Source of the DNA: a virus
Length of the DNA stretch: 64,000 bases
IMG/VR virus record: IMGVR_UViG_3300022562_000354
Coordinates: 32,001-96,000 of that record
Strand: one strand, 5' to 3'
The translations under genes were made by a program, and so were the position numbers. Below, piece after piece: positions 37,974 through 58,515 of this stretch. Position 1 is the first letter of the stretch. Each line of letters begins with the position of its first letter. The notes beneath the pieces were generated by a model. The model did not search any database. It had not been told where the DNA came from and was given only the letters and a program-made list of their open reading frames with translations.

Positions 37974-39722
37974 TCAGATGGTTTCCAGCTCCTCGGCAAG
38001 CCCCAAAGTCTCGGTCAGGTGAACACCAAGTGCAGTTTCAACACCCTCAGCGAAGCTCATTGCCTCAGCCAAATTGACCTGGACGACCGTTTCACCCGGT
38101 ACCAGGTCGAAGTCCTCCGTGAAGGCCATCGTCTCGCCGACGTCCGTACTCGTGCTAGCTACGGTCCCAAGACTCTCGGTGAGGTGGAGAATCTCGGCTG
38201 GGTTGATGTAGTGGCGCCGTAGCGTCGTGACAGACGGCGGGAACGGAGAGAGGTTGTCAGCCGTCGTGAAGGCGTAGGGCGGGGATGGATTGCCGTCGAA
38301 CAAGACCCACGTGGTCGCATTCAAGAGCGACACATCCTCGGGCAAGTGGACTTGCGTAAGGGTGAACGTGGCCCCAATGTCGATCGGCGGTGGGAGCGCA
38401 TCCTCTTCCGCATCGGATAGATTGAGCTTGGCTTCCCCGAGACGATAGAACCCAGCGAAAAGAATCGACGTATTGAGGTTCGTCGCAACAGGCGTGGGGA
38501 CCACGCCGCCGCCGTGAGTGAAGAGCGGGGGCGGGTCAACTGGTTGTGGGAACGTGTACTTGTCGAAGGCTTGCGTACACGTATCAACCTTGTCGACTTG
38601 AATCGACGAGGTAGCCGCTCCGCCCGTCTTGAGGGAGGGTGAGAAGAAGACCAACCCCTCGGGGTTCCCAAAGAGGCTGCGAACCCCAGGATCGACACTG
38701 GCAACAGGAAGATCCGGTAGAACATCCAACCCCTCTTGGAGTAGGACGGCTTCCGAAAGGCTCATCTCGACGGTCGAGCGCCCATCCGGGTTCTTGGTGA
38801 TGTTGAGCTTCTCGATGAAGGGGATCGTCTCGGTTAGCTGGACCGCGTGTTGGGTCTTGTTGTCAAACCCAGAGTTGGTGACCAGCAGATCCTCAGATAG
38901 AGTCAGGTACTCCGCCAAGGCGTTCGGATCTTCAGGTCCAAACCGTTGGGCATCGACGATGACCGAGACCGCCTCTTCAATGCGGACGATTTCGGATAGG
39001 TCAGGCCCTTTGGACTTGATCGCCCGTACTTCCCCAGTGAATAGGGTCAGGGGGACCGAAGTACGTAGCAGCGTCTTCGACCACGTGAATACTTTGGTCG
39101 GAGGGAGAACCACCAACCCATCGGATGTGGTGACATTGGAGGAAACCGTCACCACGTGCGGGATGCTGGGAACCAACGAATCGACGGTCAGAACCACGCG
39201 GGTAGCGTCCGACCCCTTGTTTGGAGTCGCATCCGTGACCGTCACGGACGTACCATCTACCGTTTGGACCGTGTAGTTGGACGGATCCGTCAAGGCGCTG
39301 TCCACCAACATGGGCTGGTGGAAGACGAGGTTGATTCGAGTAGCGCTGAGAGGGCGAGCTATGAAACGAGAGGCGACCGGGAAGCCAGTAAAGTCGGCCG
39401 TGTTGTAGAGGGGGTCGACCGTAACGAGGTCAAGACCTTCCACATCCGGCGATACCGTGACCGTGTAGGGCTCGAAATTCTGCTCGGTGGTGATGACCCG
39501 GATGGAGTTGGGGTCCGAGTCCGCAACGACACGGAGAGCCGTGAGACTGCCACTGAAGTCGTAATTGGCAACGTCCAGGGTGGCGGCGGCCGTCAGATCG
39601 ATGGGCGCCGTGAAGGTGATAACCACCGTGAAAGGGTTGATGGACGTGGCCCCGAGGACCGCGAAAAGAGTCCCTCCACCACCGAAGGGTCCACCACCGT
39701 AAGGGCCGCTACCGTAGGACAT
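37974..39722 (-). CDS. Virion protein with Ig-like domains and beta-strand repeats
   Basis: 582 aa. N-terminal YGSGPYGGGPFGG; two Ig-like domains; about 8 repeats such as LTETIPFIE, LAEAMSFAE, LTETLGLAE. Confidence 0.72.
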   Translation of the reverse strand: MSYGSGPYGGGPFGGGGTLFAVLGATSINPFTVVITFTAPIDLTAAATLDVANYDFSGSLTALRVVADSDPNSIRVITTEQNFEPYTVTVSPDVEGLDLVTVDPLYNTADFTGFPVASRFIARPLSATRINLVFHQPMLVDSALTDPSNYTVQTVDGTSVTVTDATPNKGSDATRVVLTVDSLVPSIPHVVTVSSNVTTSDGLVVLPPTKVFTWSKTLLRTSVPLTLFTGEVRAIKSKGPDLSEIVRIEEAVSVIVDAQRFGPEDPNALAEYLTLSEDLLVTNSGFDNKTQHAVQLTETIPFIEKLNITKNPDGRSTVEMSLSEAVLLQEGLDVLPDLPVASVDPGVRSLFGNPEGLVFFSPSLKTGGAATSSIQVDKVDTCTQAFDKYTFPQPVDPPPLFTHGGGVVPTPVATNLNTSILFAGFYRLGEAKLNLSDAEEDALPPPIDIGATFTLTQVHLPEDVSLLNATTWVLFDGNPSPPYAFTTADNLSPFPPSVTTLRRHYINPAEILHLTESLGTVASTSTDVGETMAFTEDFDLVPGETVVQVNLAEAMSFAEGVETALGVHLTETLGLAEELETI

Positions 39723-39728
39723 GCTTCA

Positions 39729-42700
39729 TCACGGGGTTGGATCGATCAAGAAGTCGACGTTCCCTGTCTCGACGTTCTTGATGAGTTGGTACACGTGGTA
39801 GTCCCCGTCGAGGAAGTCGAAGGGGATCGCTCCGAGAGTCGTGTTGGAATTGAGATCGAGGAGGCGCACCTCTCTGTCCCCAAGCGGGGTACTCACGAAG
39901 GCCAAGGCGGCGGTGAGCCCGAAGGCATTGAACCCGAAACGAACGCCCGTGTCTCCTGTCCCCGCTGTCGCATCGTTCAAGAGCTTGAGCCGGAAAGTGA
40001 CCTTGGTGCTCAGACCTACAGGGTCCGTAAGCGGCGTGTGGTTGCGGTAGATCGTGTTCGTCGAATTGGACGTGGAGTACGTCAAAATCGACGAGAAGGC
40101 ATTGGCCGAGACCCCACCGGGGTCATCGGACTCCAAAATCCAGGGCGTATGAAAGCCGGGGTCGTTCTCCGGGAGAACGTCGGCGTTGTAGACCGCACAG
40201 ACTTCCTTCGTCCAGTTGAGCTTGAGGACGATGGGGTTGTACTCGTCCGAGAACGGAGCCACATGGTCCTCTTCGCCCTCGGTCTGCTCGAAGACATCGA
40301 GGCAGTTGTAGAGGACATCATCCGGGACGATGAGACGGACCTTTGTGGTGGCGTCGTTCGTTACGAAGTCCCCATCGTTGTTGAGAACGTCCTCCGGCTT
40401 GTTCAAACCCGAGACGAACTCAAACGTGGGCGTCGGCCTCCGTACCTCATAGGTCTGGGTAGAGGGGACCAACGGGGTGCCCTCGTTGAGCCGCGTGAAG
40501 GCGATAGCCCCCACGTTCTCCACGTACTCGTTCCAAGGGTACGGGATGCCCGTAGAGGAGGAGCTGAATTGCGTGTGGTCGTGAGCGATGGACCCGAAGA
40601 GGTGCTCCGGGGACGACATGACGTTTCGCTGGTTCAGGAATTGGTGATGCGGAACGATGCGCATCTCTGTTGGGGACCTTGTCACTCCGTAGCGAACGAA
40701 GTCCCAGCTCGTCTGAGAGATGTTCGCGGGGTCAAAGGCTCCCCACGTGATCGAGGCTAGGCCGTTGTTGATGGCCCACGGGATCCCCAACTTGTTGGAC
40801 GGCAGTACCACTTCGCTGTAATCGACCCGGATGATCGGTGTGGGGTTCGTGTCAAAGAGGAGTGACACCGAACCCCCTGGGTCTTTCACGAGCCGATAGC
40901 GGTGGGGGGAGGTCCAATCGGTTTCGTCTGGGATGCGGTAGGCGACCTCACTCGGGATGGTCGGGAAGACCCCCGAGATCGTCAAGGTGGTGGACCCGAC
41001 ACCTACGACTTCGTAGACTCCCTTGTTGGAGCCAACGTCGATCACCAGGTCCGACCCGGCGACAACCCCCGCTGTTGCGAAGTCAGCCGTTGGGTCGGTC
41101 AGAACGTTACCGGCAACGGAGGCGTGCCCCGAAGCCAGCAAGGGAAGGTGGTACCCGATCAGAGAATCGGAGTCGGACCCCTTCCAGATGCCCACGTACT
41201 TACGCACCCCGCTCGTCGGCTGCGCTCGCCAGACGTTGAAGTAGTGCCAATCGACCACGGACTTCGCAGAAACGCTGGCCCCGGTAGAGGAACCAAACGA
41301 GATGGTCGGCGTCCCCAAAGATGCGATGAACGACGTGTAGGGGTAGTTCCCGAGCAGGTCATCGTCGATGAAGAGCGAGACCAGGTCCCCCGTTGTATTT
41401 TTGACGATTCGATAAACGTGAGCCTGCCCGTCGCCCCAGTTGAAAGTGAACTCCGAACCGGGACCAAGCAACGTGCCGTCTGAATGGAAGGCGACCTTCT
41501 TGACCCCGGCGTCCTCACGCAAAAGCAGACCGATGGCTCGATCCCCATCAAAGATGTCGATGGTCGCACCGCAGAACCCAACGGGTGTGGCGTCGTTGAC
41601 GAACGAGACCACCTGGAGCTTGAACTCCCCGTAGTAGTCGATCGCCGGAGCAACGATCCGGTCGGGGGACGCGAGCCCCTCCGTGTCCTCCACGTAGTAC
41701 ACCCGCCCGTCTGCGAGCGAGGTGTCCGAGATCCTCAAGATCCGACCCTGCATGGTCGCGGAGGCGTTCCCCAAAGAGGACCATGCGTCGGGGGTCGCGT
41801 CTCCAGGGAGGGACCGCCCAGGGTAGCTCACCTTTGGTTGCGCTAAAGTGGGGAAGAAGCTGAGTTGAATCAGCCGAACCCCATCGTCGATGGCGATCAT
41901 CACGGCATGCGGATCGATCCCATGCGTGTAGGTTCGCAGTTGGACATCCACGTCCAGAACCACGTCGGCGGAGATTTGGATCAGAGGTTCGATCCTCGTG
42001 AACCCCCGGAAGTCTCCCCCTACCAGCCCGGCATCTTGTGTCGTGGCCGAGGTTGAATCGAGGAGGAGTTGACCCCCTGATAGGAGCGTCTCGTTACCGT
42101 GGTACCCAATAGGCGTCCACGGGTAGATGGCGTCCTCGGGGGTGGCAGAACCCTCGTAGGAGACGAAGACCGAGGGCGTGGACTGGGTGGGGTTCGTGGG
42201 GAGAACGAGGTATCGGAATACGTCCCAGAGGCTCTCATTCTCCGCCTGGCGGTCGAGAGAGCCGAAGTAGACCCCTTGGAGCTGGTCGAAGGGGTCATTC
42301 AATTCCTCCAAGAAGGGAAGCTCGTCGTCAAAAATCCGAAGGGACTCGACGACTTCCCCATCTACAAAGAGCTTTACGATCCCATCCCGACCTCGGAAGA
42401 ATCGGTAGCTGTGTAGGACGGACCAGTCGAAGTCGAACGGAAGCCCCGAAGGGTCATCGTTCGCAAGGATCCCTCCCGACCACGCGGATAGATCCGCCAG
42501 TTTGTTCCCGAACCCCCGCTTTAGGAACCCGAGCTTGCGGGTGCCCCCGTCGTCCAAGTAGCCGAGCACGACCGCCTTCTGGTCGTCGCTCCAACCTACA
42601 GCGATGCCCGTGAAAACCCCGTTGGGGGTTGCCGTGTTGACCTTCATACGCCACGTAGCCGCGAACACGTGGGAGAAGGTCAGGTCGACGGCTCGGGTCC

Positions 42701-45143
42701 AGAAGATCGGGTTGCCCGTAGGGAACGGACCAGGGGCGTTGCTCTGAACCGTGAGGTTCCCATCCAACACGCTCGCCGTCCCAACCCCAAGACGCTGCCA
42801 GGGTGCCGTCAGGTCGTTCTCAGGGAGCGTGTCGGCCGTGTACGCCACGGTCGTAGATTCGAGGGTGCGTTGTAGCGGCGGGTAAGCGATCCGGTGGATC
42901 GGGGTGTTGAGAACGAGCAGGTTGGGGTCATTGAGGGCAACCGAATAGGCCCGCTCGTACGCCTTGTAGTGCAGCTCCCGGAGAAGCGGTTGAACGAGGT
43001 CGGCGCGATTGTCGTCAGGCTCGAAGGTCGCCGGCTGTACCGTGACATTGCGGTAGCGATACGTATGCTGCGTCGGGTTCTTTCGCCCAACGTCGTTCGT
43101 CCAGTTGTTGAGCCTGAACTCCTTGGAATTGAGACGGCGAAACTCGATCGTAGGGTCTTTGATCCAATGGTAGTCGATCTTGACGTCGTCGTCTGAGCTG
43201 GGGGCGGTGTAGAGAACGACCTGCCCTAGCAAGCCGATGACCGACTGCGCGGGGGTAACCACGTTGTTGACCCGAACGACAACGTCAACGGGGTCGTCGG
43301 CAATCTCTCCTGTTCGTGGGTCGATGAGCGCCCACGACAACGCCCCATTGTTTGGATCTGGGAGGCTGAAACTGGCCTGAAGACGTACCCGCTGGGCGGA
43401 CACGTACCCCGTGATGAGGTAGCTGCCTCCGTTGATCGTGGAGTTTCCAAGCTCGATACGAAGACCGACGTGGCTAGCGTTGAACGAGCTGTTGGGGAAG
43501 TAGACTTCCGTGGAGGTGAACTCGGTCGTCCCAAAAACGCTGACAGTGAAGGTTTGGATCTCCGCGTTGATTCCGCTCTGGAGAGTCAACGGGGGCTTCA
43601 CGATAGGCCCCTTGTCCGTGAAGATAGACCGGCTCACGAGGGGCGTAGCAGCGGAGAAGACGGCCTCGTTGAAGATGGGGTCGATGGGGTTACCGGCCGC
43701 GTCCTTGGGGGTTCCCGTCGCGTTCACGGTGAGCGTGTAAGACCCGTCAATGAATCCGGCTGTCTCAAGGGCGACGGTACGCTCATCGATCGCCTTGACC
43801 GAACGGATGGCGATGTCCGAAGGTCCCGTGAACGAATACTCGTCCACCGAGAGCAAGTCATCGTCGATCCGCATGGGCTCGGTGAACGAGATGACGACGG
43901 CGCCGTCCTCGGGGAAGAACTGGACGCTCTCGATCTGGGGTTTGGAACCAAGAGCCGTGAAGTCTCGTTGCCCGGAGAACAAGATCCCGAGCGTCGTCCG
44001 CACGTTGATGATGCGGCCCGTGTAGACCTTGCTCCCCGTCGATTCAGTCGTGTGGAGGTACGCTGCGGTACATCCTCGTGCGAAAGTCCACGATAGCTGC
44101 CCGGTTCCGGGTGTGAAACCAACCCCAGGAACGTAGGTCCCATTCAACGGGTCGTTGGTGGGAAGGTCTCGGTCGAGGATGAGCTTAGAGCCGTCAATAC
44201 CTACGATTCGGTAGGGAAGGAGAGGCTCAAAGAACGCCGAGCCAGAACCCGTAATGAAGAGGTAGCGACCTACGGTGGCCGCCTGCAAGAAGCTCCCGGT
44301 GACCGTGTCGAACACTCGGGATTGGAACGAACCGATGAGGGTCTCGACAACTTGACCTGACGTACCCGTGAGGATTGTGTCAATGACCGGCTCAACCCGA
44401 CCCACCGTTACTGAGATCGCTCCGTCGCTCTTGGCTTCGATAGAGTAGTGGTTTGAGTCGTTGACATCGTCGATCCGCATTTCTTGCGGAAATTCAACGA
44501 AAACGGTCCTCTCATCGACACTCGTGAACCCAAGCGCACCGACTTGGAGATCCTCAGAGATGTTGAGGGTGTCTGCCTGAACATCGACAACGGGGCCGTA
44601 GACTTGTTCGAGTGCTTCGACGAGCGAAACGGAGTCGTTCGCGTTCGCGACGAACGGGGAGATGTACTCAACGAACGTCAGGGTTTCCGAGACGTTCGTG
44701 TGAAGCCCAAAGGACACGCTGTCGCTGAGCGTGACCGTGTCGGCGGCGTTGATCGTCGCCCCTGCGATGTTGACCGTGTACTGGACGGCCAGCGGCTCAC
44801 CGAAAAGGTCTAGGGCGGCGATGTCGATGACAAGAGGATTGCCGTCCGCGAACGTCGGGTGCGTGGTGACGTTGACGTAGAGGTCCGGGCCTTCAAAGAC
44901 GATCGAGCCGCCGAACCCAGCCAGGAACTCGGCGTTGCGGATGACCTGAGCCCCGTTGAAGAAGACCTCCAGGGTCCACTCGTCAAACTCGGCCGGGGCG
45001 TTGACCTGGAACTGGATCGGGTCGTCAGGTAGTACGCCCGTGCCATCCGGGGGCGGGGTGGCGGCGACGAGCGAGATCCCGCCCGAGACGACCGCTGAGC
45101 CGCCGAACGGGGTAGTGCCGAAAGGATTTGTTCCGAAGCTCAC
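39729..45143 (-). CDS. Giant virion adhesin: Ig-like plus four ConA/LamG-like domains
   Basis: 1804 aa, GTG start. N-terminal FGTNPFGTTPFGG; Ig-like domains; four Y-x-[AG]-x-x-[LT]P...W starts and four W/F...H-x-Y-R/Q motifs. Confidence 0.72.
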   Translation of the reverse strand: MSFGTNPFGTTPFGGSAVVSGGISLVAATPPPDGTGVLPDDPIQFQVNAPAEFDEWTLEVFFNGAQVIRNAEFLAGFGGSIVFEGPDLYVNVTTHPTFADGNPLVIDIAALDLFGEPLAVQYTVNIAGATINAADTVTLSDSVSFGLHTNVSETLTFVEYISPFVANANDSVSLVEALEQVYGPVVDVQADTLNISEDLQVGALGFTSVDERTVFVEFPQEMRIDDVNDSNHYSIEAKSDGAISVTVGRVEPVIDTILTGTSGQVVETLIGSFQSRVFDTVTGSFLQAATVGRYLFITGSGSAFFEPLLPYRIVGIDGSKLILDRDLPTNDPLNGTYVPGVGFTPGTGQLSWTFARGCTAAYLHTTESTGSKVYTGRIINVRTTLGILFSGQRDFTALGSKPQIESVQFFPEDGAVVISFTEPMRIDDDLLSVDEYSFTGPSDIAIRSVKAIDERTVALETAGFIDGSYTLTVNATGTPKDAAGNPIDPIFNEAVFSAATPLVSRSIFTDKGPIVKPPLTLQSGINAEIQTFTVSVFGTTEFTSTEVYFPNSSFNASHVGLRIELGNSTINGGSYLITGYVSAQRVRLQASFSLPDPNNGALSWALIDPRTGEIADDPVDVVVRVNNVVTPAQSVIGLLGQVVLYTAPSSDDDVKIDYHWIKDPTIEFRRLNSKEFRLNNWTNDVGRKNPTQHTYRYRNVTVQPATFEPDDNRADLVQPLLRELHYKAYERAYSVALNDPNLLVLNTPIHRIAYPPLQRTLESTTVAYTADTLPENDLTAPWQRLGVGTASVLDGNLTVQSNAPGPFPTGNPIFWTRAVDLTFSHVFAATWRMKVNTATPNGVFTGIAVGWSDDQKAVVLGYLDDGGTRKLGFLKRGFGNKLADLSAWSGGILANDDPSGLPFDFDWSVLHSYRFFRGRDGIVKLFVDGEVVESLRIFDDELPFLEELNDPFDQLQGVYFGSLDRQAENESLWDVFRYLVLPTNPTQSTPSVFVSYEGSATPEDAIYPWTPIGYHGNETLLSGGQLLLDSTSATTQDAGLVGGDFRGFTRIEPLIQISADVVLDVDVQLRTYTHGIDPHAVMIAIDDGVRLIQLSFFPTLAQPKVSYPGRSLPGDATPDAWSSLGNASATMQGRILRISDTSLADGRVYYVEDTEGLASPDRIVAPAIDYYGEFKLQVVSFVNDATPVGFCGATIDIFDGDRAIGLLLREDAGVKKVAFHSDGTLLGPGSEFTFNWGDGQAHVYRIVKNTTGDLVSLFIDDDLLGNYPYTSFIASLGTPTISFGSSTGASVSAKSVVDWHYFNVWRAQPTSGVRKYVGIWKGSDSDSLIGYHLPLLASGHASVAGNVLTDPTADFATAGVVAGSDLVIDVGSNKGVYEVVGVGSTTLTISGVFPTIPSEVAYRIPDETDWTSPHRYRLVKDPGGSVSLLFDTNPTPIIRVDYSEVVLPSNKLGIPWAINNGLASITWGAFDPANISQTSWDFVRYGVTRSPTEMRIVPHHQFLNQRNVMSSPEHLFGSIAHDHTQFSSSSTGIPYPWNEYVENVGAIAFTRLNEGTPLVPSTQTYEVRRPTPTFEFVSGLNKPEDVLNNDGDFVTNDATTKVRLIVPDDVLYNCLDVFEQTEGEEDHVAPFSDEYNPIVLKLNWTKEVCAVYNADVLPENDPGFHTPWILESDDPGGVSANAFSSILTYSTSNSTNTIYRNHTPLTDPVGLSTKVTFRLKLLNDATAGTGDTGVRFGFNAFGLTAALAFVSTPLGDREVRLLDLNSNTTLGAIPFDFLDGDYHVYQLIKNVETGNVDFLIDPTP

Positions 45144-45186: not shown

Positions 45187-45492
45187 TCAAACCACCCACT
45201 GTTCGGCGATGACTACATCCACAAGAGGGTTGGCTCCACACTTGGGGCCAGCGTACTCCGTCGCGGTCGGATCTGGAGCATCTTGTACGACCCACGTTCG
45301 ATAGGTCACGGTTGGAAGGCAATCGACGTCCAGCCCCCGCATTTTGAAGTAAAGGGTGAGTGTGACGCCGCTTGATAGGAAGGCGGCCTCTACCCCATCC
45401 TTGGTGACAAAACGGCCCTTCTCCGTGCCGTTGGCAAACAGCCCTGGGCTTACGGTGACAAGGTCAGTGAGGTAGCCGTCTCGTTCCGCCAT
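45187..45492 (-). CDS. Small two-Cys virion protein (paralogue of 46489-46833)
   Basis: LYFKMRGLDVDCLPTVTYRTWV...YAGPKCGANPLVDVVIAEQW. Confidence 0.75.
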   Translation of the reverse strand: MAERDGYLTDLVTVSPGLFANGTEKGRFVTKDGVEAAFLSSGVTLTLYFKMRGLDVDCLPTVTYRTWVVQDAPDPTATEYAGPKCGANPLVDVVIAEQWVV

Positions 45493-45495
45493 GCT

Positions 45496-46479
45496 TCAGA
45501 CCAACAACATCTGCGTGGAATCCCCAAGCCAGGGGAAAATGAAGCCTCCCGCTGCCACAAATTGACGGGTGCTAGCGTTGTTGGGGAAAGTGTCTCCATC
45601 CAAGACTGCATTGGCTTTCCACCATAGGTCAGGGACGACACCCAAACGAGAAGTATCCGGCGAGGTGAAGGTGGTAGCCCCTACTGGATAGAACGGCCAC
45701 TCCCCGCTGAATGCGCTTGCCGCGTTCATCGAGATGACAGCCAGATTCCCGCCTGTTGTTGCGGCCTCCCCTCCGAAATTGACGTTGATCGTGCCAACCG
45801 AACCTCTCGCCCGGACAGGGGGGCTACCAGCCGAAGCCCAAAACGTAGTGAGAGGGGCGGAAATACCCCCTCCGTTGTTCCCTAGGGCAACGCTGAGACT
45901 GGGGTTAGACCATCCCGTAGGTGGGTCGTTTGGCTTGACAAACATGAGGAAAGTGGGTTGCGCCGAACCCCCGCGCCAAACTTGAACAATGGTGCAAGCC
46001 CCATCCGTGGACTGCCAGGCGTGGACTTGATGCTGCGTGTCCGCGTTTGAAGACCATGTGGTTGTGGAAATGAGGACGATTTCATCCGTTGCGGTAGGGC
46101 GAGCGGTTGTCGTACCTCCCGTGAACCCAGCCGAGGGGGATACGATGATCGAACCGATGTACGCAACAGGGTGGTTCGCGTCGATGCAAAGCTCAAAGTT
46201 GGTCGCGATACCCGTCTGACGTAGGACAATCCACGAATGAGGGCTACCTGACGTTGCCTTGACGATGTTGGCGGAGGTGGTCCAACGGTCCACCGCATCC
46301 AAACCAGCCGTCGAGCTGTTACTGCTCCCTCGTACCACCCAAGGCAGCGTCCCGAACCCAATAAGCAGGTTCTTGATAACCCACCAAATGTATTGGTCCG
46401 TCGCTGCGGCAGTTCCTTGCGCAGTAACGGTGTTGTTTGCGCTGATCTGCCAGGTCTTTGAGAGGGTGGGTAGAGCCAT
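45496..46479 (-). CDS. Putative virion/receptor-binding protein
   Basis: 327 aa, rich in Thr/Ser/Gly/Trp; ends FIFPW like the adjacent ~405-aa family. Confidence 0.7.
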   Translation of the reverse strand: MALPTLSKTWQISANNTVTAQGTAAATDQYIWWVIKNLLIGFGTLPWVVRGSSNSSTAGLDAVDRWTTSANIVKATSGSPHSWIVLRQTGIATNFELCIDANHPVAYIGSIIVSPSAGFTGGTTTARPTATDEIVLISTTTWSSNADTQHQVHAWQSTDGACTIVQVWRGGSAQPTFLMFVKPNDPPTGWSNPSLSVALGNNGGGISAPLTTFWASAGSPPVRARGSVGTINVNFGGEAATTGGNLAVISMNAASAFSGEWPFYPVGATTFTSPDTSRLGVVPDLWWKANAVLDGDTFPNNASTRQFVAAGGFIFPWLGDSTQMLLV

Positions 46480-46488
46480 GGTCGTCTT

Positions 46489-46833
46489 TCAGAGCTGCCA
46501 GAGGTCCGCTATGATCTCTTCCACCAAAGGACCACCGCAAGGCAGGGCTCCGGGGTAGGATTGACTGGAGTTTGTTGTCACCCACGTCACGTATGTTGGG
46601 GAGCCGCAAGCGGAATCCCGAGCCCGCTTTTTGTAGTAGGTCGTCACGGATACACCATCGCTGGCGACACCGATGGTAGCTTGCGGGTGGTAGACACCCG
46701 CACGGTCCACAACACCCCCCGTCGTGTCGTCCAGAGCTTGCGTTGAACTTGCGTACGCCGCTTGGGCGTACGTTGCGACACCACCCGTGAGATCGTCGAG
46801 GTCGTTGTCCCCGTTGGTGTTCTGAGCCGTCAC
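46489..46833 (-). CDS. Small two-Cys virion protein (paralogue of 45187-45492)
   Basis: TYYKKRARDSACGSPTYVTWV...YPGALPCGGPLVEEIIADLW; GTGA overlap with the upstream gene. Confidence 0.75.
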   Translation of the reverse strand: MTAQNTNGDNDLDDLTGGVATYAQAAYASSTQALDDTTGGVVDRAGVYHPQATIGVASDGVSVTTYYKKRARDSACGSPTYVTWVTTNSSQSYPGALPCGGPLVEEIIADLWQL

Positions 46834-48056
46834 GGGAACGCTCCAGTGGTTCCTTCTCTAGTGACTCCAGAACCATGGGTCACCGTGTTGTTCCAAGGCA
46901 CGATGATCTTGGGTGTAGAGACCGTGGCCGTGTTCCCAAGGACAATCTTCCTAGCATCGGAGGAAGTGTCCAAGTTGGCGATGTTCGCCACCTCTCGGAT
47001 CCAAGGGAGCGAGCCCGCTAGACCCCCGTGGTAGTCATACGGACCCATAAGGATGGGCATCTCATCGTAGGTAGCCGGAGAGAACCATCGGTTTGGCTGG
47101 GCTGTCGTAGAGAGGACTTCATCGATCCGACCAAGGATGATCCCCCGGACGTCCGTGCCATAGGTCTCGACCGCAATGCCCCCCTGGATAGTCGAGTTCG
47201 TTCCGGCATAGTCTCCGTAGATGTTGCCCGTGCCCATACCTAGAGCCCCTTGCCCCTGCAACATAACGTATGGGTACGTTGGCGTGAGGCCCGCCCTTGG
47301 TGTGTAAATGCCGTGGTAATTGAAGGCGTAGAGACTGTTGTTGTAGTCCCAGTGGAACGAGAACCCATCGTAGTCCGCGACCATGTGGTAACGAACGGCG
47401 GTACCATCAAAGGCTCGATAGAATAGTTGAACCTGATTTTGCTGGCTGGTTACGTGAGACGGAGTTGAAGCTCCCGTCCCTACCACGGCGAGGGGTTGGT
47501 TGCTCCGGGGAAAGACGAACCGACCCGTCCCCCCGCTTGCAGGATTCTTCCAAACGGGATCGCCCTTGGCCGCCGCCCCAAGGTTGATGGTCCCGTTCCA
47601 TGGGTTGAAGTCGCCGCCAACCCCCACGGCCATTTGAATGCCAACCACCCCGGAGCCGCTGCTCAGACCCGTCCCTTGGATGACCCCGAAGATGGAGGCA
47701 GGGAGCCCGTTCGTACCGGAGTTGTAGGCTGCTCCTTGATCCGAGCGGGCGAACTGAACCAGTGTGTAGAAAGGCTGGGTACGAGGACCAGCGTAGGAGC
47801 CATTGGCGGGGCTGGTTGAAGCCGTCCTCCATTCCACGACGAAGAAGGCGTGGGTTTTGAATGGGGCGCCCCCATCATGGTAGTCCGTCCCGGTGCCCGC
47901 ACCATCCCCGTTCCAACGGGTGATGATCGTGACGACGTTTTGTGACTCCAGAAAGGTGAAGAAGTCGTAGACGGCTTTGAAGACTTCTTGGGCGTTCGTG
48001 TATTGAGTACCCGTGTTGGAGCGACACTCGACCTTGCCGTAGAAGGGACCGGACAT
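46830..48056 (-). CDS. Tandem-paralogue virion protein, copy 3
   Basis: 408 aa. GKVEC...AQEVFKAVYDFF, WNG....KGDPVW, VFPRSN, RYHMVADYD, GIYTPR.G..P.YP, IREVAN, VPW...TREG. Confidence 0.8.
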   Translation of the reverse strand: MSGPFYGKVECRSNTGTQYTNAQEVFKAVYDFFTFLESQNVVTIITRWNGDGAGTGTDYHDGGAPFKTHAFFVVEWRTASTSPANGSYAGPRTQPFYTLVQFARSDQGAAYNSGTNGLPASIFGVIQGTGLSSGSGVVGIQMAVGVGGDFNPWNGTINLGAAAKGDPVWKNPASGGTGRFVFPRSNQPLAVVGTGASTPSHVTSQQNQVQLFYRAFDGTAVRYHMVADYDGFSFHWDYNNSLYAFNYHGIYTPRAGLTPTYPYVMLQGQGALGMGTGNIYGDYAGTNSTIQGGIAVETYGTDVRGIILGRIDEVLSTTAQPNRWFSPATYDEMPILMGPYDYHGGLAGSLPWIREVANIANLDTSSDARKIVLGNTATVSTPKIIVPWNNTVTHGSGVTREGTTGAFP

Positions 48057-48067
48057 ACCTACATCTC

Positions 48068-49279
48068 CTAAAAGTTGATCCCCTCACGGAACAGACCTGA
48101 CCTGGGTTGGACCCCCTCGGGCCACGGAGCGCTGATTTTGATCGTGTTCCCAAGGTTGTTGGAACCACCGATGGTGATTCGCTTTCCGTCCGGACTCAGG
48201 GAGTAGGATTCTCGGTTCCCAACCTCACGGATGAAATCGATCTGACCGGCGTACCCGAAGTGAGTGGGCACCTCGTACATGAAGACAGGGATGGGAAACT
48301 CGTCCCACGTAGGGGTGGATGAGTATTGGTTGGGGTTGAGATAGGGGGACAAGGACTCCAAAGCCCCAACGTATCGATCGATGACGCAACCACGGACCTC
48401 ATCTACAGCCGGATTGGCGGACGGGATCCCCCCTCCATTGTTGGGGTTCGAGGTCATGCCTCCTGTACCAGCCGTGTTCCCAAAGACGTAACCTCTGGTG
48501 TACGGGAGAACGCTCGTGACCGTGCTTAGGCACACCATAGGGTAGTCCGGAGTGAAGCCGGGCCGTGGCGTGTAGAGACCGAAGTAGGTCATGGCGCAGT
48601 CGTCCGTCTCCCCACCTTCATAGAACATGACGATCGAATCATCGTCAGCCATGATGTGGTGCCGAGACACGGTGTGACTGAAGGCGTTGTAGTAGTGGGT
48701 AAAGCAGTTGTGGCGAAACGGACTCGCCCCACCAGGCCCATGTGTACCACCCGGCCCGTTGCTCCGAGGGAAGACCAAAACACCCGAACCCCCTGAAGGG
48801 GTTGCCCAAACGACCGCCCCCTTTGTGTTGGTTCCGAGCGTCCCACCCCCGTTCCATGGGTTCTGGTCTCCACCGATCCCGATGGCGAACTGAAGCCCTA
48901 CACGTGATTCGGATCCACCGCCTGCGGTGTTGTCAGCAAGACCTGGGTTACCAGGGGACGCCCCGAAAGTTCCGACATCTCCTCGATTCCACTGGATCAG
49001 GACGTACCAAGGAAACGTCCGAGGCCCCGTGTAAGAAGGGTTATCGGCCACCGTGTTCATTCGGAACACGGCGAAGGCGTTGTTCAAAAAGGGGTTCGCC
49101 TGATCCCAGTAGTTGACGTTCGCGGCACCCCCGCCCACCCCACCATGACGAGCGATCTCCGTCATGTTCGGATGAGAACTGAAGAAGTTGTACAGGTTCG
49201 TGAAGACCCCTTGGGCGATGGTATAGGAGCTGGAGACGTTGAATAGGCTCTCCACCTTGCCTTTGACTGTCCCCGCCAT
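48068..49279 (-). CDS. Tandem-paralogue virion protein, copy 2
   Basis: 403 aa; same motifs (HPNMTEIAR, GPRTFPWY, VFPRSNGPGG, GLYTPRPG, IDFIREV, REGINF). Confidence 0.8.
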   Translation of the reverse strand: MAGTVKGKVESLFNVSSSYTIAQGVFTNLYNFFSSHPNMTEIARHGGVGGGAANVNYWDQANPFLNNAFAVFRMNTVADNPSYTGPRTFPWYVLIQWNRGDVGTFGASPGNPGLADNTAGGGSESRVGLQFAIGIGGDQNPWNGGGTLGTNTKGAVVWATPSGGSGVLVFPRSNGPGGTHGPGGASPFRHNCFTHYYNAFSHTVSRHHIMADDDSIVMFYEGGETDDCAMTYFGLYTPRPGFTPDYPMVCLSTVTSVLPYTRGYVFGNTAGTGGMTSNPNNGGGIPSANPAVDEVRGCVIDRYVGALESLSPYLNPNQYSSTPTWDEFPIPVFMYEVPTHFGYAGQIDFIREVGNRESYSLSPDGKRITIGGSNNLGNTIKISAPWPEGVQPRSGLFREGINF

Positions 49280-49289
49280 CAGAACGACC

Positions 49290-50504
49290 TCACGGGAAAT
49301 TGATCCCCTGCCGAGTGAAGTTGCTCCGAGGAACGGCCGCCCCTACCGGGTTAGTCGCATCCGACTTCCACGGAACGGATAGCTTCGTCGCTTGGGAAGC
49401 GTTGGTCCCAAAAAAGACGCGGGAGCGGTCCGAGGTGCCGTCGTTGGTCCCCACGTCGTAGACCTCCCGAATGAAGTCGATGTGCCCCGCCAACCCGTAA
49501 TAGGAGGGAGTCTCCGATCCGATCACGGGGATGTTGTACTCGTCATACCTTTCATCGGAAAACATGTTGTTGGGGTGGGTGTAGATGTTGTGGAACTCAT
49601 CCGGACGACCGAAGATGACCCCCCTTACGTTGTTCGTGGCCACCGTGTTCCAAGCAACTCCACCGTTTCGGTTGGTGCCGTTCGTGGTCCCGTACAGCGT
49701 GTTCATCGCCAACGGGAGATTGTACTCCATGAGATGCACCATCGGGTAGTCGATGGTCAGCCCAGGACGAGGCGTATAGAGCCCGAAATACTGAGCCTGG
49801 TAGTTGTTGTCATCCGACTGGGAATTTAAGAACAGGATGCTATCGTCGTCGGCGAGGATGTGTAGTCGGGTTGGGGACTCAAAGCTGATCGGGTAAAACC
49901 CCGCCGAAGCCTCTCTGTTGGTGGCGTAGGAACCTCCAGGGCCGTTCGCTCGGGGGAAGACGTACGACCCCTGGAAGCCAGCCGGCGCCCCCGCCGTGGT
50001 CTTCCAAACGGGGGAAGCCTTGGTGTTCGTCCCAAGTGTACCGCCACCGTTCCAAGCGACCTCGCTGGTCCCTGGAGTCGTCCCCACCGGGATCGCAAAC
50101 TGCATCCCGAGGGTCGAGTAGGAGCCACCGTAGTTCGTGGAGTTGTCCACGACTCCAGGGGACGCTCCGGTTCCGTTCCAAGCCGACTGGTCGAACCTCG
50201 TCCACTGGACGTAGATGTACCAAGGGAACGTCCTTGAGCCTGCGTAACCGGAGGCCGCTCCGCTCTCCAACGTGGCGTCATTCATTCGGAAGACGCACCA
50301 GCAATTTGTCAGGAACGGGTTGGTTTCGTCGTGAAAGTTGACGCTGGCCGCCGTGCTACTGACCCCGCCGTAACGGGCGATTTGGGTCATGTTCGGATGG
50401 GAGTTGAGGAAATCGTAGATGCACTTGAACACGTTCTGGGCGTTGGTGTGCCGAGAACCCGTGTTGATGTAGCAGTCGATCTTCCCTCTAAGCGTTCCTC
50501 CCAT
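49290..50504 (-). CDS. Tandem-paralogue virion protein, copy 1
   Basis: 404 aa; same motifs (HPNMTQIAR, GSRTFPWY, VFPRANGPGG, GLYTPRPG, IDFIREV, RQGINFP). Confidence 0.8.
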   Translation of the reverse strand: MGGTLRGKIDCYINTGSRHTNAQNVFKCIYDFLNSHPNMTQIARYGGVSSTAASVNFHDETNPFLTNCWCVFRMNDATLESGAASGYAGSRTFPWYIYVQWTRFDQSAWNGTGASPGVVDNSTNYGGSYSTLGMQFAIPVGTTPGTSEVAWNGGGTLGTNTKASPVWKTTAGAPAGFQGSYVFPRANGPGGSYATNREASAGFYPISFESPTRLHILADDDSILFLNSQSDDNNYQAQYFGLYTPRPGLTIDYPMVHLMEYNLPLAMNTLYGTTNGTNRNGGVAWNTVATNNVRGVIFGRPDEFHNIYTHPNNMFSDERYDEYNIPVIGSETPSYYGLAGHIDFIREVYDVGTNDGTSDRSRVFFGTNASQATKLSVPWKSDATNPVGAAVPRSNFTRQGINFP

Positions 50505-50507
50505 CGA

Positions 50508-51680
50508 TCAACCCCATGTGAAGACGAGTCTGGCGTTGGTACACGTGACGCGATCCGTCGAGCCCCCCGTGGTCGTCATCCGAAGATGGACCTCGTAGTC
50601 CTTCACGTCTGCTGGGAGCGTGACGACTTGCTCCAACGTGTCCGGGATGGATGAGGCCGATGACAAGGGTGTCCCGACGTAACCCCCATCCGTCAAGTTG
50701 TAGAGTTGGATCTCAGCCACCTTGCCTACCGTGGCCTCAACCGCTGCGACGAACTTGATCTGCGTGTTGGAAGGGAACTGCGTGGGATCGGCTCGGCACG
50801 TACCGACCCGCGTGAAGATGTTTTGGTCCGTGGTTCGGTTGCCCGCTAGAAGCTCGATGATCTCGTACTTGCGGAGGTGTTGAGCTTCGGCGAGGTTGGC
50901 CCGAGCGGCTACCCAGTTGGTGCCGTCGTAAACAGCCTCAAGCTCGTACGTGATCGTACCGCTCGGGGGTGCCGAGATGGTGTTGATCGGAGATCCGCCA
51001 ACCCCGTTGTTGAGGATGAAGTCCCCAGCCCCAGCCGTCATGGCGACCAAGAAGCGGAAGCGCTTTCCGTCCGACAAGGCCGGGAGCGCCAGCTCCTCGG
51101 TCCTGTCCCCGGCCCCCGTCATCGCGATGACCCGATAGGGCTTCTCCGTACCATCCGTCAGGGTGACAGTGACGGGAGTGCCCGACGAATGGGTGACCGC
51201 TTGCGTATGCCCTACGTACCGACCAACCCGAGCCTTGAGGAACCGAAGATAGGCGTCGAGTTGGAAGTTCGTGGCGGCGTTCGCTCGGCCACCCCAACCC
51301 GCCTTCTGAGCCAAGGCGGTCTGGTTCGTCATGTTCCCCGTCTGCCCCGCAGACGGGAGAGTCAGAGCGTCCTCGTCTTCGACCCCGAAGAACTTGATGT
51401 CCGTCGTGGTCCCGTTGACGCCGTCCGTTCTCGTAAGGCGGACGATGTAGACCCCATCCGAGGTCGGGGTCACCGTCGCTACCTGCAACGTGTCGTTGGT
51501 GATGACCGGGGCCGACCCCACGGGAGCCGGCCAGGAGAGGATCTCCCAGAGGTAGGAGTCCGCGCCCGCACCCCCATCGTCCGTCAGCGTAACCGTCTGG
51601 TTCGGCTGAAAGCCGAACACGGACTGCCCGCTGCCGCCGATGACCGCACCTTGGGTGAACTGACACGTAGCTAGAGCCAT
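50508..51680 (-). CDS. Virion protein with an N-terminal PKD/Ig-like domain
   Basis: 390 aa; TVTLTD...SYLWEILSWP...TVTPTSDGVYIVRLT. Confidence 0.7.
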   Translation of the reverse strand: MALATCQFTQGAVIGGSGQSVFGFQPNQTVTLTDDGGAGADSYLWEILSWPAPVGSAPVITNDTLQVATVTPTSDGVYIVRLTRTDGVNGTTTDIKFFGVEDEDALTLPSAGQTGNMTNQTALAQKAGWGGRANAATNFQLDAYLRFLKARVGRYVGHTQAVTHSSGTPVTVTLTDGTEKPYRVIAMTGAGDRTEELALPALSDGKRFRFLVAMTAGAGDFILNNGVGGSPINTISAPPSGTITYELEAVYDGTNWVAARANLAEAQHLRKYEIIELLAGNRTTDQNIFTRVGTCRADPTQFPSNTQIKFVAAVEATVGKVAEIQLYNLTDGGYVGTPLSSASSIPDTLEQVVTLPADVKDYEVHLRMTTTGGSTDRVTCTNARLVFTWG

Positions 51681-53133: not shown

Positions 53134-56100
53134 TTACTTCGCCTCGCGGAAGGTGATCGTGAACTTCCCGAGGTCCAAGAACTCGACGCCCGAAGCGGTC
53201 ATGTCCTTGGTGCCGACATCACCTCGAATGACGTAACTTACCGCGTAGTTATGGTTGGAGGGCTCATCCGGTGGAACACCGGCCCCCGACAGAGAGATCA
53301 CGATGTGGTTGGCCGTTCGGCGCAGAATCTCCGCATCCTGAGTAGCCGTCGTCAAGAAGCCGTCTGCTACGAGAGTGGGCGTGTCCGTGTAACCCAAGAT
53401 GACGGCGCCATCATTGCCGATGATGAAGGCTTGGTTCGCATCGGAACATACGGACGAGAGCGTATCGACGATGGTGAGAGGCTCATCGTCTTGGAAGACC
53501 CCCTTGTGTTCCGTAGGGAGCCCACCACCGTCCGTTGTGGGGAACTTGAGAGCGCTCGTTAGGATGAAGGCGACGTTGCCGCCGATGTCCAAGGTGGCGA
53601 GATGCTCACTGGCAGAGGTAAGCGTTTCACGCAGCTTTCTTGAGCCATCGGCGTAGGCCATACGCGCGAGGGGGATGACCTGGAAGTCGACTCCCTCCGA
53701 GGCATCAATCGAGTGGATCAGGTCGGACTGAGCGATCCCTTGGCCGATGAGGCGACGGTTCAACTCCAAGCTGACATTCGACCGGATCGTCGGGTCCGCC
53801 TTGTCACGGGTAGCGCCGGAGAGGAGCTGGACCGTGGTTTCGATCTCGACCGAATTTTGGACCGCTTGCTTGACGATAACGTCGGCAGTCGTATGGCGCC
53901 GCGAGTTGATCGTGCGTTGGAGCTGTTGGAGAAGGTCGTTGATGACGTACGAGACCGTGAAGTTCTCGTCGTGGACATAGTCGACCGAGACCGTAGCCCC
54001 GTTGGGGATGTCCGAGCTGCTTGTACGGACAAGTTTCACGGGGGTTGTAGGTGTACCCTCGATGATCTCGAAGTCTGGGACCGTCTCCTCCGGTCCGTCG
54101 TACTCCACCGTACGGTCGGCGTTGAAAACGCGGATGGTCTTGGTGTTGATACCGATCGAAAGGAGGGGCTCCTCGATGAAGCCGATAAGCACGTGTTGCT
54201 CATCGTTCACCGGAAGGCTGTCTCCAGACGGGATGCCTCCCACCTGGTTGATCGAGAGAAAGTCCGAGGCGATCGTGCTCTCCCCTTCAAGAAGAGGGTC
54301 CTCGGTCTTGTAGAGGTCGTAGCCAAGGGTGGGATCCAACGTGCCCGAGATTTCACCGACAACAGAAACGACGCGTCGGACAGGCTGGAAGGTGAACTTG
54401 AACTGGTTGAGCGCTCGGAATCGGTAGTCTGCCGTGACAACGTCGTCGATGTTCGTGACAGGCTGACTAACCAAGAGCGGGTTCAATTTGAACGTCTGGT
54501 AGTCGATGATCGTGACCCCGGTAAGGTCGTAATCGAGACCTTGGGTGACGTTTCGTACGCCGAGGCCATTCGCAGAGTCGTCGAGGATCTCCGTTACTGG
54601 GGTCGAGGGAGTGACGCGGCTGTCCTGAACACGGAAGATCAGGTTGGCAAGGTCAAGGATTTGGCACTGAACGTCACGGGCCACTGAGAAGGTGAAGGCG
54701 AACTTCTCCGTGACCTGACGCTCGCGAAGACCCTGAACCCACACGTCCACCTTGCCGCCGATGTGCTTGCGGCGGATGTCGTCGTAGTCCCGCATCATCA
54801 AGTCGTCCCCAGACTTGATGACCTTGGCCTTCAAGACGCCGATCTGCTCGGCAGTGGTGGAGGTGTACCCACCCTCCGTACCCGTATCGACCGAGACGAA
54901 GCCCAGCATGGCTCGGGTAGCCAAATCCGCGTTGGACTCCCGGTCGCTCCCAAAGACCGTCGCCTCCGTGTTGGTCACAAGGAGGCCCGTCACCCCTTGG
55001 GCACTCTTGATCTGCCCGGCCGGTCGGTTCCCATCGGCGCCAACTGTCTCTGCGACGATGTCTACCGTCAGCTCATAGCGCTTCGTGTCGAAGTTGTAGT
55101 AGGCGTCAGCATTGGCTGCGGACAGGATGAAGGTGCCACCTACGAGGAATCGAACAGAGGGGATACCAAGCGAAGCATCCGCATCCGTGGTCACAATCGT
55201 ACCGGAGGGGACCGGAAGGTCGAAGAGGGGCTTAGATGTCGTGTAGAAGACAGCCTGACCTACAGCCGGCCGACCTGGCAAACGCTTCTTGTTGGCGTTC
55301 CCGGCGAGCTTGTCAAAGGCGGAATCCACGAGGCTCTGAACCGCCGAGTTGCTCGTGAAGCCGAGGGCGGCCCGAAGCGCCGTCTTGTAGGCGCTCGCTT
55401 CTACGAAGTCCGACTCCCCGTCGTTGTTAGCGTCATCGATTTGGAGGAGCGTGAGGAAGCTCTGCGCCCGGTGGACGAAGTCCAAGAGGAAGTAGAGTCG
55501 CTCCGCCTCCGAGCTGAATGGATCGATCGACACGTCACGGGTTGTCGAGCCCGGAACCAAGCTGATCTCTTGGTTCACCCGTTGAATGGCGGTGATGAAT
55601 TGGTTGGTGATCTCGAACTGCGTCCGACCGGGTAGGTCTCGGATGGCCGTGTCGATGGTGAGCGGAGAGCCAAGTACCTCTTGAGAAAAAGGGCTCTCGA
55701 TCTCCGTGCTCGTCGAATCGTCGTAGTATACGGCCGTAACGACGTAATACAGCGGGTCCGTGTCGGCGACGTTAACGAACTGGTCGTCGTTCAGGATGCC
55801 GGGTCCTCCAGCTCGCGTATGCCGGAAGTAGACGAACTGCGTGAGGGTTCTGTCTTGGAGGGTGGAGGCGAACTTGAACTGGTTGGTGAAGGCGGTGATG
55901 TCGTAGGCGCGATCAAACCGAACTTCGGTCTCGTTTCCGAACTGGTCCTCCTCCGTGACGCGGATCCGAACCGACTGAGCGATGGACTCCTCCGAGGCGT
56001 CCCAGACCACGTTGTCCGTTCCAATGTCGAAGAGGTCTTCCTCGTAGACATCGGAGGCGGTGGTGACGAGGTTCTCATTGATGCGGAAATAACCGGCCGT

Positions 56101-56628
56101 CCCACCCGGAGAGACGGAAGCATAGTAGTGGAACCCGATGAACTTGGGGCCGCCGTTATCGGGCTCGGGGGTACCCACGATCGCCAGCGGGCTAAGGGTG
56201 TTCACAACCTGCGAGTCTGGAATCGCGGCGAGAACGTCAACCGCATCCCTACGGCGGCGGACCCGGATACCCGAGGGTGCCTCCGCCGTGGCGATATCCG
56301 CTGCCCTGACCTTGGTGATATTGACGATAGAGGCACCGCTCACGCCGCCGATGATGTCGATCGTGCGGATGAGGATGACGTTCTTACCGGGCTCCAAAAT
56401 GAAGCCGGTCGGGTAGTTGTCCGGGTTGGGAAGGGTGAAGTTGGGGAGGTCGAACTTCACCAGGGTCGGATCAGAGACGAACGGAGCCCCGTTGATCGAG
56501 ACTTGGATGTCCGCCGTGCTTACGTCAACCTGACCTTCGATGAAGATGGCCTCTTGGTTCGTGTTGAACGTCAACGTCTGGGTGTAACCAGAACCGTCTC
56601 TCAGGGCGATTTGCGGTGCGAAGGCCAT
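53134..56628 (-). CDS. Baseplate J-like wedge protein with extra domains
   Basis: 1164 aa; PGSTTRDVSIDP, AVGQAVFY, VPSGTIV, GADGNRPAGQI, GSDRESNADLATR, GGKVDVWV. Confidence 0.88.
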   Translation of the reverse strand: MAFAPQIALRDGSGYTQTLTFNTNQEAIFIEGQVDVSTADIQVSINGAPFVSDPTLVKFDLPNFTLPNPDNYPTGFILEPGKNVILIRTIDIIGGVSGASIVNITKVRAADIATAEAPSGIRVRRRRDAVDVLAAIPDSQVVNTLSPLAIVGTPEPDNGGPKFIGFHYYASVSPGGTAGYFRINENLVTTASDVYEEDLFDIGTDNVVWDASEESIAQSVRIRVTEEDQFGNETEVRFDRAYDITAFTNQFKFASTLQDRTLTQFVYFRHTRAGGPGILNDDQFVNVADTDPLYYVVTAVYYDDSTSTEIESPFSQEVLGSPLTIDTAIRDLPGRTQFEITNQFITAIQRVNQEISLVPGSTTRDVSIDPFSSEAERLYFLLDFVHRAQSFLTLLQIDDANNDGESDFVEASAYKTALRAALGFTSNSAVQSLVDSAFDKLAGNANKKRLPGRPAVGQAVFYTTSKPLFDLPVPSGTIVTTDADASLGIPSVRFLVGGTFILSAANADAYYNFDTKRYELTVDIVAETVGADGNRPAGQIKSAQGVTGLLVTNTEATVFGSDRESNADLATRAMLGFVSVDTGTEGGYTSTTAEQIGVLKAKVIKSGDDLMMRDYDDIRRKHIGGKVDVWVQGLRERQVTEKFAFTFSVARDVQCQILDLANLIFRVQDSRVTPSTPVTEILDDSANGLGVRNVTQGLDYDLTGVTIIDYQTFKLNPLLVSQPVTNIDDVVTADYRFRALNQFKFTFQPVRRVVSVVGEISGTLDPTLGYDLYKTEDPLLEGESTIASDFLSINQVGGIPSGDSLPVNDEQHVLIGFIEEPLLSIGINTKTIRVFNADRTVEYDGPEETVPDFEIIEGTPTTPVKLVRTSSSDIPNGATVSVDYVHDENFTVSYVINDLLQQLQRTINSRRHTTADVIVKQAVQNSVEIETTVQLLSGATRDKADPTIRSNVSLELNRRLIGQGIAQSDLIHSIDASEGVDFQVIPLARMAYADGSRKLRETLTSASEHLATLDIGGNVAFILTSALKFPTTDGGGLPTEHKGVFQDDEPLTIVDTLSSVCSDANQAFIIGNDGAVILGYTDTPTLVADGFLTTATQDAEILRRTANHIVISLSGAGVPPDEPSNHNYAVSYVIRGDVGTKDMTASGVEFLDLGKFTITFREAK

Positions 56629-57763: not shown

Positions 57764-58515
57764 GACCCACTCTCCCCAGAGATGGCGTAGCCGCTACCGC
57801 TACGTTCAATCACAAGACCATCTGGGTTGTTACGAGTCGGGCCGGGGTCGTACTCCGACATCGGCGCGTGCGTGAGCTTGCCGAAGGGGTCTTTGCCCTT
57901 GTCGTCGATGATGGCCCGGTAGTTCTTGTTGGCGAACAGTTGGTTGACTTCCGTTACGATGTTCTCCAACGAGTTGGCCACATCGGCGGATTGCTTGATC
58001 TTTTTCAGCTCATCGATCTCGGCTTGGAGCTGGTCGCCGTAGTCCAGCATGCGCCGGATCTTCCGTTCCAACGCAGCTCGACGATCGAGCGTAGCCGCCA
58101 TGAACGACTTGAGCCGCTGGACGTACTGAGCCGTTGGAGCATCCGCGAGCCCTTGCGCCGTCAAGGGCTCTCCGTTCGACATCACCTTCGGAGCCGACAC
58201 TTCAGAGCCCGTGGGGAGGAAGACGCTTTGGTCGGCGAGGGATCGGGTCTGAAGCTCGTAAAAAGCGTCTCCCCCGAGAGCCTCGTACGCTTGCATGAGC
58301 TTGCCGATGTAGGTAGGGGATCCGCCCTCGGCCCCCGTCTTGTACTCCGTGGGTCGTCCGGCTGCGTCATACGTGAATCGTAGGTAGCCGACACGACCTT
58401 GCTCGACGGTGAGGTGCTTGATCCTCTCGTCGATGAGCAGAAGTTGCTTCCGCGCATACTCCGTGAGCCGCTCGAACTGGCTCTTGTTGAAGGTACCTCC
58501 AAAGTAGAACGGCAT
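57760..58515 (-). CDS. Hypothetical coiled-coil virion protein
   Basis: 251 aa; heptads LERKIRRMLDYGDQLQAEIDELKKIK; ATGA overlap with the gp25-like gene. Confidence 0.75.
   Translation of the reverse strand: MPFYFGGTFNKSQFERLTEYARKQLLLIDERIKHLTVEQGRVGYLRFTYDAAGRPTEYKTGAEGGSPTYIGKLMQAYEALGGDAFYELQTRSLADQSVFLPTGSEVSAPKVMSNGEPLTAQGLADAPTAQYVQRLKSFMAATLDRRAALERKIRRMLDYGDQLQAEIDELKKIKQSADVANSLENIVTEVNQLFANKNYRAIIDDKGKDPFGKLTHAPMSEYDPGPTRNNPDGLVIERSGSGYAISGESGS

Follow-up and report, generated by a model that had tools for sequence, protein, structure and literature searches.

Two gp47/gp48-fold gene cassettes with small cognate partners at a baseplate slot of a huge myophage: candidate bead-like appendages

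Introduction

The closest described counterpart of the genes considered here is found in the Pseudomonas phage JBD30, whose gp47 and gp48 proteins have similar folds and form heterodimers (PMC11445458). Each arm of the JBD30 baseplate contains three of these gp47/gp48 heterodimers, and three bent arms extend laterally from the baseplate and clasp the type IV pilus (PMC11445458). We describe two adjacent blocks of genes encoding predicted relatives of this fold in a 64,000-nucleotide stretch of DNA (hereafter the window), which covers bases 32001-96000 of the IMG/VR viral contig IMGVR_UViG_3300022562_000354 (109,944 bp, estimated at 23 per cent of the genome). The first block, which we treat as cassette I, comprises three paralogues of about 405 amino acids (aa), called A, B, and C, and a 114-aa partner; the second, treated as cassette II, comprises a 327-aa protein and a 101-aa partner. 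We put at roughly 60 per cent the probability that cassette I encodes a bead-like, hetero-oligomeric arm and cassette II a second arm, with the small protein present once per arm.

Tail-fibre genes and their chaperones offer another comparison. Like the blocks in the window, the T4 gp37/gp38, Mu S/U, and lambda Stf/Tfa pairs have a small, specific gene directly downstream of the appendage gene and show cassette-like variation at one locus. The window differs in that its large proteins are not fibrous trimers in our models, its small proteins lack a chaperone-family match, and one small gene serves one to five different large genes. Huge phages encode many large virion proteins of unknown role, and this locus can now be tied to a solved structure.

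Fold of the large proteins

AlphaFold2 models of the 404-aa class A protein and the 327-aa protein were compared with approximately 48,000 representative PDB chains (VIA-align). The class A model, built from a thirty-one-row alignment (predicted local distance difference test [pLDDT] 83, predicted template modelling score [pTM] 0.89), matched chain 8rk3_c of the JBD30 baseplate at Z 18.0 (root-mean-square deviation [rmsd] 3.8, 261/317 residues aligned), and its next match had a Z of only 4.1. The 327-aa model (pLDDT 91.6) had the same chain as its single strong match (Z 17.8, rmsd 3.6, 259 residues aligned; next Z <5). Foldseek also returned E values of 3e-5 and 1e-4 to 8rk3 chains K and G. 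Their lengths of 317 and 305 residues assign these two chains to gp47 and gp48, and 8rk3_c is gp47.

Since both models match 8rk3_c, all four large proteins are predicted to share one globular fold, that of gp47/gp48, which is known from a hetero-oligomeric, non-trimeric appendage. No fibre structures were among the structural matches of either model, though a family missing from a match list is not thereby excluded; each model forms a compact, globular body. In BFVD, the neighbours common to the two models included virion structural proteins of the siphophages KL1 and FoX4, gp371 of phage G, two proteins of Atu_ph07, and A7KUT2-4. The ESM Atlas returned only unnamed viral clusters for the 327-aa protein.

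The resemblance to JBD30 extends to gene arrangement, as both have adjacent paralogous genes in a tail or baseplate cluster, and the modelled subunits, like those of JBD30, are globular rather than fibrous trimers. However, the 405-aa proteins of the window carry about eighty extra residues, and 405-type arrays contain three to five paralogues where JBD30 has two. The literature citing JBD30 contained nothing on gp47/gp48 relatives.

Three conserved paralogue classes

The three 405-type genes lie on the minus strand and encode class A (404 aa; 49290..50504), class B (403 aa; 48068..49279), and class C (408 aa; 46830..48056). They align over their full length at 36-45 per cent identity (E 1e-59 to 1e-95), with B 41-45 per cent identical to A and C 36-38 per cent identical to A and B. 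This agrees with the original prediction, made from the sequence before any database search, that the three are paralogous from end to end; every motif it listed is present in the alignment. The 14-mer GTCATGTTCGGATG it gave as shared by two of the copies occurs exactly twice, at 49161 and 50386 (1225 bases apart; expected 0.01), and the six open reading frames it called in the two blocks were all recovered on the minus strand at the coordinates reported here. No further copies of the 405-type, 327-type, or small-partner genes were found elsewhere on the 109,944-bp source contig.

Pfam and PHROG searches with all six block proteins gave nothing usable, and neither large family is represented in these collections. 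A tblastn search of 50,697 phage records with the 404-aa protein found no match. The 405-type family comprises 482 clusters at 50 per cent identity (E up to 1e-3), nearly all of them 360-410 aa in length.

The same baseplate module is present on two related contigs, L005 (from a complete genome of 407 kb) and L006, which carry five (A, A', B, C, C') and four (A, B, C, C') copies of the 405-type gene, respectively. In each, the array is followed by a small protein of 158-160 aa and then by a giant protein of about 1900 aa. Every window paralogue is closest to the gene at the matching relative position in L005 and L006. Identity is 55 per cent for A, 52-54 per cent for B (copies L5_434 and L6_411), and 40-46 per cent for C, compared with 31-46 per cent across classes. 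A tree that included further metagenomic homologues resolved three clades corresponding to the classes, and each related genome was represented in several of them. By sequence, then, A, B, and C are conserved orthologue classes, and lineage-specific duplications have produced the three to five copies seen in relatives. From the three clades and the retained positions, the triplication is therefore old, with each class kept, which argues for distinct, non-interchangeable roles.

Orthologues of the paralogues are about 55 per cent identical, similar to the neighbouring PKD-like (58 per cent) and giant (53 per cent) proteins and lower than Baseplate J (69 per cent). The variation in class A falls in several loop-sized segments (e.g. 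residues 106-135, 196-210, 256-270, and 376-390). The original prediction called for copy number and loop variability to be compared across related genomes and saw the paralogues as part of a system with swappable tips. Copy number does vary, from three to five, and there are variable loops, but these are scattered and no swapped tip was seen; old orthologue classes with identities similar to those of their neighbours do not fit rapid tip exchange.

The 327-aa protein and its family

The 327-aa gene (45496..46479, minus strand) encodes a large subunit that again has the gp47/gp48-like fold but belongs to a second family, one of more than 822 proteins. L008-L011 each have one copy at this slot, to which it is 48-51 per cent identical. 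The 327-aa protein had been described as related to the 405-aa set. Pairwise sequence similarity does not bear this out, as BLASTP of the 327-aa protein against each 405-type paralogue found nothing significant (E 0.6-2.4). A narrow profile comparison, between close homologues of the 405-aa set and the 327-aa family, gave no match either (Prob 0.5 per cent). What remains of the claim is the fold and a weak match between a broad, seventy-five-sequence 405-type profile and the 327-type profile (Prob 35 per cent, E 4e-4, colinear over 278 columns). The relatedness of the two families is thus visible mainly as a common predicted fold.

Members of the 327-type family occur in varied settings. On a 72-kb viral contig (L017:16-9011), at least seven 327-family genes and three small-partner genes are packed into 9 kb, mostly as two large genes followed by one small gene. 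At L022:4262-9658, the 327-family domain makes up the C-terminal portion of larger proteins (801, 438, and 443 aa), followed by a 107-aa small partner; N-terminal extensions thus exist in this family. A smaller phage contig (L019:896-13693) has a 327-family gene after terminase, portal, and putative major head protein genes, and at L016:6599-13572 one is flanked by a tail-fibre-like gene and by the gene for a major head protein.

Small partner proteins

Each block in the window ends with a small gene on the minus strand. The 114-aa gene (46489..46833) follows the 405-type genes, and its GTG start overlaps the stop codon of class C (GTGA). Its product belongs to small family A4 and is 45-55 per cent identical to the small proteins closing the 405-type arrays of L004-L006. 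The 101-aa gene (45187..45492) follows the 327-aa gene, and its product is 52-59 per cent identical to the small proteins found after the 327-type gene in L008-L011. Close homologues of the 327-aa (71 per cent) and 101-aa (74 per cent) proteins occur together on a contig of 2186 bp. As had been predicted, the two small proteins are paralogues, with 37 per cent identity over their C-terminal sixty residues (E 4e-9). The pair of cysteines first taken as their signature is not a family trait: both are absent from many members, namely those of L004-L006 and L017. Conservation in the small family is limited to the C-terminal fifty-five or so residues.

A hidden Markov model (HMM) of the small proteins identified a homologue directly after the last large gene in twelve loci (fourteen blocks in all). 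These homologues follow the 405-type arrays of L004-L006 and the single 327-type gene of L008-L011. They also follow 327-type genes in L015 (after three), L016 (after two), L017 (three times, each after one or two), and L022 (after three). Every such block has one small gene, always in last position, regardless of the number of large genes. Furthermore, each small protein from the window groups with partners from its own block type, the 114-aa protein with those of 405-type blocks and the 101-aa protein with those of 327-type blocks. By this grouping, each small protein is cognate to its block type.

The small proteins had no Pfam match, only noise-level PHROG matches, and no match to a known chaperone family. 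A PDB sequence search with the profile of small family A4 also found nothing, and for the 101-aa protein the ESM Atlas gave only a poor model (pTM 0.27) with no informative neighbours. A 928-aa protein of L015 that appeared as a member of the small family was treated as spurious, as it vanished once the profile was rebuilt from short members only.

Either or both cassettes at one baseplate slot

The closest relative of the window phage is L008 (71 per cent identity in Baseplate J, 81 per cent in the 272-aa protein, 82 per cent in the 177-aa protein, 66 per cent in the PKD-like protein, and 60 per cent in the giant protein). Between its PKD-like gene and its giant gene, L008 has only one 327-type gene and the small partner of that gene. 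Whole-record searches found five 405-type and no 327-type genes in G003 (complete, 407 kb), and one 327-type and no 405-type genes each in G002 (380 kb, with terminal repeats) and G001 (363 kb). In the window phage, both cassettes are present in tandem, flanked by the same genes as in its relatives. As either or both cassettes occur between the same flanks, they act as units that can be swapped or stacked at one set position among the baseplate genes.

These results support part of the modular system that was originally proposed. One small gene closes each block, the pairing is cognate, and block types alternate at one slot; it is the swappable tips that find no support. Related huge phages swap or stack whole cassettes, and the gp47/gp48-fold genes here come as multi-paralogue sets with a dedicated small partner.

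Parallels in cultured jumbo phages

A similar layout is found in two cultured jumbo myophages of Bacillus. Phage 0305phi8-36 (L029:33676-36558) encodes gp158, gp159, and gp160 (293, 270, and 267 aa) followed by the 114-aa gp161, downstream of the gpJ-like gp151. All four of these proteins (gp158-161) are annotated as virion proteins detected by mass spectrometry. The BFVD neighbours A7KUT2-4 were equated with gp158-160 by their identical lengths and consecutive accession numbers rather than by aligned sequence. In phage G (L031:10965-13870), gp371-373 (280-290 aa) precede the 96-aa gp374, and gp371 is the BFVD match G3MAB2. Homology links the triplet of one phage to that of the other (E down to 1e-16).

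In both phages, as in the window, three tandem paralogues of the same predicted fold are followed by a small gene (114 or 96 aa). The large proteins are shorter than those of the window (267-293 aa), lack sequence similarity to them, and have no annotated function. The layout of a gp47/gp48-fold triplet followed by a small gene is thus recurrent in large myophages. The comparative paper on 0305phi8-36 does not discuss gp158-161.

Proposed appendages and alternatives

We propose that the two cassettes encode non-classical virion appendages and sit between the genes for a PKD-like protein and a giant, fibre-like protein. By analogy with JBD30, A, B, and C would each have a separate, fixed place in a hetero-oligomeric, bead-like arm. 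The 327-aa protein would build a second arm, probably as a homo-oligomer. The small protein, at one per arm, could serve as a cassette-specific anchor, cap, or assembly factor. With both cassettes, the window phage would have two kinds of surface-binding appendage.

Several points weigh against this proposal. The oligomeric state, virion presence, attachment site, and adhesin role that it assigns to these proteins are drawn from JBD30 and from the surrounding genes. The baseplate of JBD30 is three-fold and belongs to a siphophage, whereas the genes described here belong to the myophage baseplate of a huge phage, and the geometry of assembly may differ. JBD30 also has no small partner gene after gp48, where the 567-aa gp49 (the distal tail protein) is found instead. 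No sequence link to gp47/gp48 was found: these two proteins match PHROG 687 at 1e-101 and 6e-97, but the window proteins do not (no PHROG match at E up to 0.1), and gp47 and gp48 rise no higher than noise against HMMs of the two large families of the window. Nor do the small genes that close the phage G and 0305phi8-36 triplets resemble the small family of the window in sequence. Finally, 327-family genes adjoin head genes in some smaller phages, so the family is not tied to baseplates.

The same genes could instead encode non-adhesive parts of the outer baseplate (wedge periphery, struts, or decoration), with the small protein as a structural clip and no role in host recognition. Their position within the baseplate gene run would suit such parts. 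So would the retention of orthologue classes through long divergence, with identities close to those of the structural proteins encoded nearby, and for the 0305phi8-36 proteins of this fold the annotation goes no further than virion structural protein. We nevertheless consider this unlikely. Complete relatives do without one or the other cassette, which fits accessory appendages better than core architecture; the surface loops differ between orthologues; and the only characterised relative of the fold is a pilus-binding arm (PMC11445458).

A further reading, close to the original prediction, takes the large proteins for receptor-binding fibres or tips of the classical trimeric kind. A, B, and C would then form a heterotrimer and the 327-aa protein a homotrimer, with the small proteins as dedicated adaptors or chaperones and the tips swapped to change host range. 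Fibre genes do usually occupy the position after the baseplate genes, and a small gene behind them recalls the tail-fibre assembly chaperones. Moreover, three paralogue classes recur, triplets are also present in phage G and 0305phi8-36, and the cassettes vary between relatives. Yet both models are single globular alpha/beta bodies whose sole strong structural match is known to form heterodimers (PMC11445458), and relatives with four or five distinct paralogues are a poor fit for a fixed heterotrimer. The orthologues are also colinear, with their differences in loops along the protein and not in an exchanged tip, and the chaperone families of Pfam and PHROGs are not matched by the small proteins. 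The heterotrimer and homotrimer as proposed thus find no support here, and we regard fibres of this kind as improbable.

A role as virion-borne enzymes, suggested by the published assignment of gp47 to the hydrolases of the nitrilase superfamily, with the cell wall as its possible target (PMC11445458), is very improbable given that Pfam-A finds no family in gp47, gp48, or the window proteins (and no CN_hydrolase match), that Gly, Pro, Trp, and Asp make up most of the invariant or near-invariant columns in both families, with no conserved Glu-Lys-Cys set, and that no nitrilase chain was among the structure-search matches of either model. The published nitrilase-superfamily label of gp47 (L007:4083-5039) was itself not reproduced by our Pfam-A scan.

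If the bead-like arms are as proposed, the size of the two families (the 482 clusters and more than 822 proteins noted above) suggests that such arms, so far seen only in JBD30, are widespread. A broader generalization, which we offer tentatively and hold to be less probable than the arms themselves, is that blocks of one to five gp47/gp48-fold paralogues plus one small cognate protein represent a widespread, unnamed class of appendage. Such appendages would be built of globular beads rather than trimeric fibres and would range from siphophages to huge phages. Whole cassettes would be exchanged at a fixed baseplate slot, and the small protein would represent a new arm-anchoring or arm-capping family. 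For uncultured huge phages, the cassettes provide a concrete, testable handle on host recognition, and they supply an annotation rule for two large orphan families.

Gene context

The whole region is encoded on the minus strand as a single run of tightly packed genes downstream of Baseplate J. In order of transcription, the genes encode Baseplate J, a 272-aa protein, a 177-aa protein, the 390-aa PKD-like protein, the 404-, 403-, and 408-aa paralogues, the 114-aa protein, the 327-aa protein, the 101-aa protein, and the 1804-aa giant. Promoter- and terminator-like sites in this run were not above chance level.

The Baseplate J or wedge protein (1164 aa; 53134..56628, minus strand) matches Pfam Baseplate_J (E 1.2e-13) and the baseplate wedge subunit PHROG 6 (E 3e-23), which places the block locus in the baseplate module. 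Its matches include proteins from a 485-kb uncultured phage (35 per cent identity), Tunturiibacter phage Tunturi_5, and Bacillus phage G; the window is therefore a fragment of a huge myophage.

The 390-aa protein (50508..51680, minus strand) is the conserved upstream neighbour of either block type. Its weak PKD/Ig-like N-terminal domain matches Pfam K319L-like_PKD at E 3.6e-5 and 24.1 bits, below the Pfam cut-off of 27. Homologues with 58-66 per cent identity lie directly upstream of the block in L004-L011, and this holds even after the rearrangement in L009-L011. The 1804-aa giant (39729..45143, minus strand) is the conserved downstream neighbour, with homologues of 49-60 per cent identity after the small gene in L004-L006 and L008.

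In the rearranged loci (L009:6257-8566, L010:9264-11573, and L011:9264-11516), the giant lies upstream of the PKD-like gene, and the small partner is followed by a gene for a 750-769-aa fusion, in which the first 134 or so residues of the giant (window 44742-45143; 55-56 per cent identity) recur at the N-terminus and are joined to a homologue of the 582-aa protein of the window (37974-39722). Despite the rearrangement, the product encoded next to the small partner therefore still carries this module of about 134 aa at its N-terminus, possibly as a docking domain.

Two genes upstream of Baseplate J, the window encodes a 251-aa protein (57760-58515) with a weak RHS-repeat match (E 0.0012, below the cut-off). 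This protein is conserved at 59-62 per cent in L004-L008.

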